From contig JABHUQ010000028.1 of NCBI GenBank assembly GCA_018658715.1, positions 5,663-69,662 of the forward strand: a stretch of DNA of 64,000 nt, read 5' to 3'. A program made the position numbers and the translations under genes. The DNA is from Fidelibacterota bacterium (GTDB lineage: Bacteria; Fidelibacterota; Marinisomatia; Marinisomatales; UBA1611). The notes below the pieces were generated by a model. It was not told the DNA's origin. It saw nothing but the letters and a program-made list of their open reading frames with translations, and searched no databases. Below are positions 8,089-8,735 of this stretch, in pieces (position 1 is the stretch's first letter; each line of letters opens with the position of its first letter).

Positions 8089-8325
8089 ATGAACAAAATT
8101 ATGAAATTGCTAATTACATTTGTTATAGCGCTTTCCATGATTTCTATTCTTCCTGCTGAAACAACTGTAGCAAAAACAGATGCAAAAGCAGAAGTAGCTA
8201 CCCAAATTGATGTTGCTGATTATGCTGTAATTGCAATGGAAGATAGCAAAAAGAAGAAGAAAAAGAAGATCAAAAAGAAGAAATGGAAATGGGGAAAGAA
8301 AAAGAAAAAAGGTTCAAGTGACTGA
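8089..8325 (+). CDS. Small protein with hydrophobic N-terminus, acidic spacer and poly-lysine tail (paralogue 1)
   Basis: 78-aa ORF with an RBS (AGAGAGGA) upstream and a terminator at 8350..8374. It is homologous in protein and DNA to 8499..8735. The tail reads KKKKKKKIKKKKWKWGKKKKKGSSD. Confidence 0.65.
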   Translation: MNKIMKLLITFVIALSMISILPAETTVAKTDAKAEVATQIDVADYAVIAMEDSKKKKKKKIKKKKWKWGKKKKKGSSD

Positions 8326-8349
8326 TTTTTAAATTCTCACACATAAAAA

Positions 8350-8374
8350 GGGCATATTTATGCCCTTTTTTTTT
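8350..8374 (+). terminator. Rho-independent terminator after poly-K gene 1
   Basis: Stem GGGCAT / ATGCCC with a 4-nt loop, followed by a run of 9 T. Confidence 0.75.
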
Positions 8375-8400
8375 ATTATAATTAGCCAAAGTAATATTTC

Positions 8401-8430
8401 TTGACAACCATCTACTATTACCAATAATAT
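8401..8430 (+). promoter_or_regulatory. Sigma70-like promoter for poly-K gene 2
   Basis: TTGACA (8401..8406), a 17-nt spacer, then ATAATA/TAATAT (8424..8430). It lies about 70 nt upstream of the ATG at 8499. Confidence 0.45.
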
Positions 8431-8498
8431 TGTATCGACTAGTCATTCAATTTTGGCTATTCATGGTTAACCAAAACAAATAAAACAAAGGAATCATA

Positions 8499-8735
8499 AT
8501 GACACGTTTATTTAAAATGTTTATTACATTTGTCATGGCTTTTTCTATGCTTTCTGCTATTCCAACAAATACAACTGTTAGTAATACGAATGTAAAAGCT
8601 GAAATTGCTAACCAGGTAGATTCTGCAGATGATGCAGTAATTGCAATGGAAGATAGCAAAAAGAAGAAAAAGAAGAAAAAGAAGAAGAAAAAGTTTAAAT
8701 GGGGAAAGAAAAAGAAAAAAGCTTCAGGCGACTAA
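8499..8735 (+). CDS. Small protein with hydrophobic N-terminus, acidic spacer and poly-lysine tail (paralogue 2)
   Basis: 78-aa ORF with RBS AAAGGA and its own promoter-like element and terminator. The tail reads KKKKKKKKKKKKFKWGKKKKKASGD. Confidence 0.65.
   Translation: MTRLFKMFITFVMAFSMLSAIPTNTTVSNTNVKAEIANQVDSADDAVIAMEDSKKKKKKKKKKKKFKWGKKKKKASGD

Follow-up and report, generated by a model that had tools for sequence, protein, structure and literature searches.

The window examined here, i.e. the whole 64,000-nucleotide stretch of DNA, matches the Candidatus Marinimicrobia (SAR406) metagenome-assembled genome GCA_018655725.1 and carries on its forward strand two adjacent open reading frames (ORFs), each of which encodes a peptide of 78 amino acids (aa) that ends in a tail of nearly pure lysine (copy 1, 8089..8325; copy 2, 8499..8735). 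The two proteins align without gaps at 67% identity. At the DNA level, the pair represents a 410-nt tandem duplication, in which 225 nt can be aligned at 77% identity including a block of 32 nt that is identical in both copies. Both products appear to be pre-pro-peptides, in which a hydrophobic N-terminus is followed by a spacer with a net charge of -5 and by the poly-lysine tail. In copy 1, the predicted signal peptide covers positions ~8089-8157, the acidic spacer 8158-8247, the tail 8248-8322 and the stop codon 8323-8325; the corresponding positions in copy 2 are ~8499-8567, 8568-8657, 8658-8732 and 8733-8735. The tails read K7-I-K4-WKWG-K5 in one copy and K12-FKWG-K5 in the other, and no other run of five or more lysines is found in any frame of the 64-kb window. 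The ORFs, their length, the tripartite architecture and the shared DNA stretch had all been described in an original prediction made from the letters alone, and re-analysis of the sequence confirmed each of them.

Each gene is equipped with expression signals of its own on the + strand. Copy 2 is preceded by a sigma70-like promoter (8401..8430), which can be read as TTGACA-16-AATAAT or as TTGACA-18-TAATAT with 11 of 12 consensus matches and whose -35 core TTGAC is invariant across eight aligned orthologous upstream regions; the earlier proposal of this promoter holds, except that its spacing of 17 is off by one. For copy 1, a consensus scan returned the putative sigma70-like promoter TTGATA-18-TAGATT (7987..8016; 9 of 12 matches), a weak match if taken alone, which aligns with the invariant -35 element CTTGA(C/T) of the orthologues. 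Ribosome binding sites had been predicted for both genes and are found in either case 5 nt upstream of the ATG, namely GAGAGGA for copy 1 (8077..8083), where the orthologues keep AAGGAGAG, and AAGGAA for copy 2 (8488-8493), as read from the sequence. The strong intrinsic terminators likewise turned out to be real: an 11-bp stem followed by T9 downstream of copy 1 (8345..8374; -13.6 kcal/mol, z = -4.9 versus shuffled sequences) and a 13-bp stem followed by T7 downstream of copy 2 (8754..8787; -19.3 kcal/mol, z = -6.2). The same kinds of signals are present at the orthologous loci L005 and L011. Both ORFs are genuine, apparently independently transcribed genes and tandem paralogues of a large undescribed family, in which the tandem duplication is limited to the lineage of the window.

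The 5' untranslated region (UTR) of copy 2 (8436..8498, + strand; ~63 nt) contains two perfect 8-bp palindromes, GACTAGTC (8437-8444, immediately 3' of the -10 element) and GGTTAACC (8465-8472). Both are conserved in the orthologue alignment, being kept in the ~63-nt 5' UTRs of most host orthologues, with matching positions in loci L005, L014, L017 and L019, and may represent operator sites. The 5' UTRs match no Rfam family and show no significant RNA fold (z = -2.2 for copy 2). A further protein, P0002 (77 aa, encoded on a 502-bp contig), joins the N-terminal half of copy 2 to the C-terminal end of copy 1 (WKWGKKKKKGSSD), a chimera that arose either by gene conversion within the tandem pair or as an artefact of assembly.

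To what extent the lysine codons are used as codons can be judged from their composition. The two tails contain 8 AAA and 9 AAG and 8 AAA and 10 AAG codons, respectively, that is ~50% AAG, whereas 911 AAA and 178 AAG codons were counted in 37 long ORFs of the window, corresponding to a background of 16% AAG. The longest A-run in either tail comprises 6 nt; under background codon use, a maximum run of 6 nt or less has a probability of 5e-5 per gene. Seven further orthologues from other lineages also show A-runs of at most 6 nt and ~50% AAG, albeit with differing synonymous patterns, and the limit is kept in all nine host orthologues (P 5e-5 to 2e-2 each, at AAG backgrounds of 0.16-0.27). Nei-Gojobori estimates gave ratios of non-synonymous to synonymous substitution rates (dN/dS) of 0.07-0.40 for signal peptide and spacer, while the tails combine saturation of synonymous AAA/AAG changes with a dN of just 0.05-0.17. 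Length variation of the K tract, which had been named as a possible sign of non-coding repeats, does occur among close relatives (K7, K10 and K12), but all of these variants remain in frame and keep the downstream motif KWKWGKKKK, so that the variation is harmless. Frameshifted versions are few among metagenomic sequences (P0061, P0070, P0073, P0096, P0111 and P0114) as compared to thousands of intact ones, and the small gene is intact even in error-prone long-read assemblies in which the neighbouring genes are fragmented. Taken as a whole, these substitution and codon patterns show purifying selection on the peptide and a codon choice that avoids long A-runs, in line with the original prediction that the lysines are translated and that long A-runs are selected against: the AAA/AAG interleaving was re-created in nine orthologues. 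In the six frameshifted versions, the shift lies within the K tract and yields RKRRK or EEKEE; either errors in sequencing through the purine run or genuine slippage may account for them.

Relatives were found by an alignment search with the N-terminal part, and scans with poly-K patterns confirmed nothing. When 1.84 billion representative proteins were searched with a profile, 64 representatives were obtained at 50% identity, and with the identity level at 90% the family comprises at least 2,493 clusters; the copy 1 protein is present in identical form on 146 public contigs. Every match with a named source belongs to Marinimicrobia / Neomarinimicrobiota. Divergent members are mostly located on contigs shorter than 2 kb and therefore provide little gene context. 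Members of the family share a common design, in which a Sec-type signal peptide precedes an acidic spacer (15-30 aa), and this in turn a Lys-only tail of 25-30 aa that ends in an aromatic tip. The C-terminal module is strongly conserved behind variable N-termini and follows the consensus [DE][VI]-K6-G-KK-x3-KG-K5-GFFSK[VF][FK]G[SA]K, the tip being GFFSK[VF][FK]G[SA]K in most members and [WF]KWGKKKKK in the window. (Semi-)tryptic peptides derived from the spacers, such as (E)TTVAK..., AEVATQIDVADYAVIAMEDSK and AEIANQVDSADDAVIAMEDSK, would be expected to mark the mature N-terminus.

Neither the window copies nor canonical members matched a family in Pfam, NCBIfam, PHROG or PADLOC, compositional matches remaining far below the cut-offs, and no relative of the peptide was found in the PDB, where the best match (E = 0.027) is a K-rich mitoribosomal protein. 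The earlier impression that no described family is involved is therefore upheld. Literature searches on the motif, on Marinimicrobia in combination with 'lysine-rich' and on the function of DUF481 yielded nothing useful. The best NCBIfam match of copy 1 was to the Asr model NF033636 (18.9 bits, E = 0.002), which found no match in copy 2 or in canonical members. With a cut-off of 50 bits, and as Asr contains no poly-Lys, acidic spacer or aromatic tip, an assignment as Asr orthologue was rejected.

The N-termini have the features of signal peptides. A hydrophobic core with a mean Kyte-Doolittle value of at least 1.8 over 10 residues is present in all 232 distinct members listed, and K or R occurs within the first 8 residues in 144/144 cell-type and 68/88 viral members listed. 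The n-region carries two positive charges, and the core extends over 12-16 residues, which is the length of a signal peptide rather than of a transmembrane (TM) segment. Pro and small residues come next, and putative signal peptidase I sites were assigned by inspection (slashes mark the cleavage positions): VLPA/E or VKA/D in host members and PxxNA/ or AQA/ in phage members, for example PTVNA/M, PAANA/S, PTAQA/S, ALNA/Q and AVPTVNA/MEMN. By inspection and simple scoring, the members thus resemble Sec pre-proteins processed by signal peptidase I with respect to n-region, h-region (expected at 7-15 residues) and the small residues at -3 and -1. The 25-30 residues following the core have a net charge of -3 to -6. 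Cysteines, two or three of them (e.g. C-x3-C-x3-C), are present in the spacer of a minority of members, which fits an oxidising compartment. The tails of the 232 distinct members listed contain 3,980 K versus 7 R, although Arg AGR codons are one transition away from AAR and K/(K+R) is 0.645 in the window proteome. Arg was found to be rate-limiting for SecYEG, whereas Lys can cross in deprotonated form (Allen et al. 2022, PMC9110029), and poly-Lys is more inhibitory when placed near the signal peptide, according to Liang et al. 2012 as cited in PMC6028853. Lys-only tails behind an acidic spacer hence look like a design suited to Sec export, and the peptides are probably exported, as far as can be told from their sequences. 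A cytoplasmic tail, which had originally been offered as an alternative on the grounds of the positive-inside rule, is disfavoured by the positive n-region, the h-region of 12-16 residues, its acidic flank and the Lys-only tails. The other idea of an acidic pro-region in front of a polycation fares better, since it fits best with signal-peptide-like N-termini, although the type of locus that would go with an antimicrobial peptide or bacteriocin is not supported (see below).

Two other identities were considered for this architecture and dismissed. A holin would have at least one full TM domain, whereas the core here spans 12-16 residues and gives way to a site of the signal-peptidase type and then to an acidic stretch; in addition, the host copies have no endolysin neighbour. 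A tether resembling Braun lipoprotein or an o-spanin was rejected as the window copies lack Cys and no lipobox was seen across the family.

The gene downstream of the pair (8838..9758, + strand) encodes a very acidic protein of 306 aa (net charge -35) that is putatively a DUF481-like outer membrane β-barrel, as suggested by a sub-threshold Pfam match; DUF481 (PF04338) is an uncharacterised family of outer membrane barrels, and a 60%-identical homologue of the protein (P0056) is listed at NCBI as 'DUF481 domain-containing protein'. It is among the most acidic proteins of the window, its orthologues having net charges of -19 to -34, and it possesses an acidic N-terminal extension behind a signal peptide that is apparently cleaved before Gln (...FS/QNED, ...FG/QDAD). 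The order peptide gene, acidic protein (286-344 aa), leuS was observed in 14/14 host loci examined, which represent ~9 lineages with leucyl-tRNA synthetases 67-82% identical to that of the window, and the gap between peptide and acidic protein genes is 103-106 nt throughout. The upstream neighbour is variable: most lineages have an ABC-2-type transporter there, and L011 has gpsA. Since the peptide-partner order is kept while the upstream gene changes, the stable unit is, by gene order, the polycationic peptide gene with its terminator and the hyper-acidic putative barrel. The survey of relatives and neighbours suggested originally thus delivered relatives, and it also uncovered an acidic DUF481-like neighbour and a phage branch, both of which the original prediction itself had missed.

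Several further observations concern this neighbourhood. The orthologues of the acidic protein differ by an Asp/Tyr-rich insertion of up to ~50 aa (DYYYWIPIDTTIDGVDYVYTDSSLVYADYYYTDS...; L005 8019-9050 versus 8838-9758 of the window, alignment columns 170-260), which is presumably a loop of the barrel. A profile search of PDB sequences with the acidic protein found nothing. Upstream of the pair, positions 4653-7811 (- strand) together with an adjoining DUF4340 gene encode a divergently transcribed ABC transporter, consisting of ATPase, ABC-2 permease, an ABC_transp_aux/DUF7088 protein and the DUF4340 protein, which we read as GldA/F/G-like. It adjoins the peptide gene in most lineages, among them the divergent one of P0076 (L150), while gpsA takes its place in L011. 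On the 3' side of leuS (12300-17250, homologous to L001 14220-19169) lies the gene for a hybrid sensor kinase of 1,649 aa, which contains CarboxypepD_reg and Reg_prop-like domains; next come genes for a response regulator and for a protein combining HisKA, response-regulator and guanylate-cyclase domains. A class II bacteriocin locus or a locus for ribosomally synthesized and post-translationally modified peptides was rejected as an identity, given the Sec-type signal, the absence of a GG motif and neighbours that comprise an ABC transporter, an outer membrane protein (OMP) and leuS.

The C-terminal module is also encoded by marine phages. A scan of IMG/VR with a DNA pattern for KKKKGFFSK returned at least 120 loci, of which at least 108 encode peptides of 50-90 aa with the module, at least 88 of them distinct. 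These peptides combine a short signal peptide (e.g. MKNILKLILSAVILFGAVPTVNA/MEMNMAGMEE) with a short acidic spacer and the C-terminal module. The neighbouring genes encode tail sheath, tube, tape measure, hub, tail spike, M15-type endolysin and SSB, and recurring hallmark gene clusters are present on 86 of the 120 viral loci listed, which indicates that the contigs are genuinely viral. The peptide gene is packed tightly into late, unrelated operons and lacks a terminator. Among the matches listed, it lies between the tail tube and hub genes in 16 myovirus-like loci, and within the 29 loci that bear an M15 endolysin gene it is adjacent to the latter in 10, within three genes of it in 17, and elsewhere otherwise; the host copies are located outside any lysis cassette. 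Flavobacterium phage immuto, the closest cultured relative (sheath 41% identical), has an empty gap of 109 nt at the same slot, so that the phage gene is accessory and mobile rather than structural. Host and phage modules can be paired by sub-type, ...GFFSKVFGSK being shared by L021 and L034 and ...GFFSKFKGAK by L015/L016 and L050. The paired modules are 91-97% identical at the amino-acid but just 84-88% at the nucleotide level, which fits selection on the peptide rather than a very recent transfer. A tblastn search with a phage peptide against 50,697 GenBank phage records returned nothing, which is a weak negative as the low-complexity filter was on.

The phage tails (viral loci L028-L147) contain ~52% AAG as compared to a phage background of 29%, and A-runs of 7-8 nt are tolerated in 35 of the 110 phage copies listed, whereas host copies never exceed 6 nt. 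Furthermore, the polybasic-GFFSK motif recurs outside the small peptides: it is repeated internally (KKKKKGFFSKLLGG, KKKKGFFSFLTGG) in viral proteins of 480-540 aa that are hyper-acidic and have one TM segment, and a viral protein of 227 aa ends in it (KKKKGFFSKLFS). Contigs carrying the motif in other proteins include L044, L046, L054, L058, L068 and L079 as well as L071 and L110. A viral family with a TM segment plus coiled coil, which is i-spanin-like (cluster c5, e.g. L093 10619-10939), ends in WGKKKKKR. The polybasic-GFFSK motif looks like a portable module.

How might such a peptide act? In the model that we favour, the pre-peptide would be exported post-translationally via SecYEG, with the acidic spacer serving to separate the polycation from the signal peptide and with Lys, rather than Arg, permitting passage, and would then be cleaved by signal peptidase I. 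The released peptide, whose tail bears a charge of ~+16 to +22, may bind an anionic envelope target at the periplasmic side. Binding to anionic surfaces is expected from this charge and the aromatic tip. The likeliest target would be the acidic barrel encoded next door, the anionic outer membrane lipids or lipopolysaccharide (LPS), or both: the barrel is the obvious candidate partner, and the lipids/LPS could be an alternative or additional target. A specific partner rather than generic electrostatics is suggested by the hyper-acidic OMP neighbour, the fixed Gly and Lys positions and the matching of host and phage sub-types. Binding would tune outer membrane stability, permeability or the accessibility of receptors. 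The phages would carry the module behind a minimal signal peptide, express it together with their late genes and thereby reach the target of the host peptide as infection comes to its end, so as to weaken an outer membrane stabilised by Mg2+, as a disruptin does, or else to mask a receptor; late co-expression with endolysin and tail genes fits both a Sec-delivered disruptin and a receptor mask similar to T5 Llp. We give roughly even credence to the core of this model, i.e. that an exported polycation binds an anionic envelope target or the adjoining acidic barrel and that phages carry the same module. Only tentatively do we extend it to a host-phage system, in which the SAR406 peptide would be a dedicated ligand (gate, plug or stabiliser) of the hyper-acidic barrel and phages would have repeatedly captured the lineage-matched module in order to manipulate the barrel or the outer membrane.

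A number of observations weigh against the favoured model. Regarding the partner, the DUF481 match of the window protein (E = 6e-4, 20.3 bits) falls short of the gathering cut-off of 21.1, scores of 18.4-20.3 bits were obtained for 4/11 of its orthologues and the remaining ones gave no match. An AlphaFold2 model of the protein, based on an alignment of four sequences, is all-beta with ~14 strands at low confidence (pLDDT 43.6) and was too poor for a fold search. The charges of peptide and OMP do not co-vary across lineages, and the link between the two is drawn from synteny and charge complementarity only. Regarding export, the (-3,-1) cleavage heuristic proved unreliable, as it chose sites inside the h-region, and was not used for positions; moreover, SecYEG translocation of more than 16 lysines is slow, as PMC6028853 quotes from Liang et al. 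2012. Regarding the phages, the gene contexts are mixed (tail module, lysis region, vicinity of SSB) and do not indicate a single function, many phage contigs seemingly encode spanin-like pairs as judged by inspection, and the sub-type of the window ([WF]KWGKKKKK-GSSD; viral scan with [WFCL]KWGKKKK) had 0 matches in viral contigs.

The phage data could also be read the other way round, with the host copies having been domesticated from phage genes (or vice versa) and a function of the phage type being the primary one everywhere, namely that of a Sec-delivered disruptin that breaches the outer membrane during lysis or of a T5 Llp-like superinfection-exclusion factor or receptor mask acting on the barrel. 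This reading overlaps with the favoured model. It draws on the presence of the module on more than 100 phage contigs, the proximity to endolysin genes, the accessory insertion into tail modules and the sub-type match, and there is precedent for a small cationic phage peptide that replaces spanins (bioRxiv 10.1101/515445). We nevertheless consider it unlikely, given that the host loci are ancient, syntenic and free of other phage genes, and that an outer membrane disruptor under a constitutive promoter would harm the host. In addition, the phage contigs already seem to hold spanin-like pairs of a TM/coiled-coil protein and a lipoprotein, and the precedent, phiKT gp28, lacks a signal sequence and is charged at just +7.

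A secreted antimicrobial or bacteriocin-like peptide, whose polycation would kill competitors after being neutralised by the spacer as a pro-piece, with the acidic barrel in the role of exporter or immunity sink, appears distinctly improbable. The architecture is indeed like that of antimicrobial peptide precursors, the gene has its own strong promoter and terminator as well as an acidic barrel next to it, and polycations of the poly-lysine type reportedly disorganise outer membranes (Vaara & Vaara 1983). However, the gene belongs to the core genome and occupies a fixed position in leuS synteny across deep lineages rather than an accessory island, and the locus contains no double-glycine leader, C39-peptidase ABC exporter, modification, processing or immunity gene. 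The upstream ABC transporter (ABC-2 membrane protein, ABC_transp_aux and DUF4340) reads as GldA/F/G-like and is absent in the L011 lineage, and the carriage of the module among late phage genes is left unexplained.

Even more doubtful is an uncleaved membrane anchor whose polybasic-aromatic tail stays in the cytoplasm and binds the inner leaflet, nucleic acid, ribosomes or polyphosphate, in the manner of the MinD membrane targeting sequence (MTS) or the basic tails of YidC. Positive-inside logic for ~20 lysines argues for it, as do the recurrence of the motif inside larger viral proteins and the resemblance of KKKKKGFFSKVFG to the MinD MTS KKGFLKRLFGG and to the MARCKS effector domain (for the MTS concept, see PMC8155659). 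Opposed to this, the positive n-region and the acidic residues flanking the h-region predict an N-in/C-out orientation, the h-regions of 12-16 residues are followed by canonical (-3,-1) sites, some spacers are rich in Cys, and the near-total exclusion of Arg would be unexpected in a cytoplasmic nucleic-acid binder. Finally, the notion that no functional protein is made, the ORFs being an open purine-rich simple repeat or a Lys-codon leader that attenuates OMP and leuS, could invoke the terminator close behind each ORF, the variable K-tract length and the few frameshifted metagenome versions, but is effectively refuted by purifying selection over the whole ORF, motifs conserved over the entire set of clusters, in-frame length changes, terminator-less phage copies in unrelated operons, downstream genes unrelated to lysine metabolism and the lack of an Rfam leader. 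An attenuator leader peptide was likewise rejected as an identity, the ORF having 78 aa with a conserved signal peptide under selection and OMP and leuS downstream.

Among the uncultured lineages of the dark ocean, SAR406/Marinimicrobia is one of the most abundant, and its envelope and phages are little known. The peptide family is abundant and yet invisible to annotation, since its genes are labelled 'hypothetical' or not called. It provides a rare natural case of a ribosomally made run of ~20 lysines that is predicted to be exported, and bears on the handling of extreme positive charge by SecYEG, on the avoidance of poly(A) slippage when poly-Lys is encoded, and on how marine phages breach outer membranes stabilised by the Mg2+ and Ca2+ of seawater. 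A role as Sec-delivered disruptin is attractive in this environment, where 50 mM Mg2+ stabilises the outer membrane, and if the peptide were active on outer membranes at the ionic strength of seawater, it may be useful as a permeabiliser. Should the host-phage reading hold true, the peptide would represent a new class of outer membrane effector made of near-pure lysine, an 'exported disruptin' or receptor mask. The matching of sub-types could also serve as a sequence marker that links uncultured phages to their Marinimicrobia hosts.

Nothing in the curated libraries or in the literature searched describes this peptide family; the kind of molecule that it most resembles is an exported or cationic membrane-active peptide. 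Escherichia coli Asr similarly has a signal peptide, which is followed by ..AETT.. and by a Lys-rich disordered periplasmic protein. However, Asr consists of His/Lys/Ala/Gln/Pro-rich repeats and is devoid of poly-Lys, an acidic spacer and an aromatic tip. Polycations such as Lys20, protamine and polymyxin nonapeptide disorganise outer membranes. The peptides described here share with synthetic and natural polycations the ~20 consecutive cationic residues, and with eukaryotic antimicrobial peptide precursors an acidic segment that precedes the cationic part behind a signal peptide. Unlike polycationic agents that act from outside, they are made by ribosomes, encoded by bacteria as well as phages and predicted to be delivered to the periplasm. 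Motifs in which a polybasic run is combined with aromatic residues bind anionic membranes by electrostatics and aromatic insertion. The MinD MTS and MARCKS have such a run with Phe or Trp (KKGFLKRLFGG versus KKKGFFSKVFGSK; MTS concept, PMC8155659), but unlike the peptide family they act at the cytoplasmic leaflet as parts of larger proteins. The helical hydrophobic moment of the C-terminal motif is uninformative in this comparison.

Two phage systems come close in other respects. T5 Llp and Cor are small exported phage proteins that bind an outer membrane barrel from the periplasm and thereby block superinfection or the loss of progeny on debris. The family resembles them as far as small exported phage proteins are concerned, and in the host the gene of the homologue is linked to that of an acidic barrel; in contrast, Llp and Cor are lipoproteins with folded domains, whereas no lipobox is present here and binding to the barrel is just inferred. 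The phiKT gp28 disruptin (Holt et al., bioRxiv 10.1101/515445), a peptide of 56 aa that acts on the outer membrane at lysis, is a small cationic phage peptide that is encoded next to an endolysin, as are the phage homologues in 10 of the 29 listed loci with an M15 endolysin, and that likewise has no homologues in database families. There is no sequence similarity between the two. While gp28 is predicted to form an amphipathic helix of charge +7 and carries no signal or membrane-localisation sequence, the peptides encoded in the window and by its relatives combine a cleavable signal peptide, as predicted, with an acidic spacer and +16 to +22 charges of near-pure Lys, and their gene belongs to the chromosomal core of the host.

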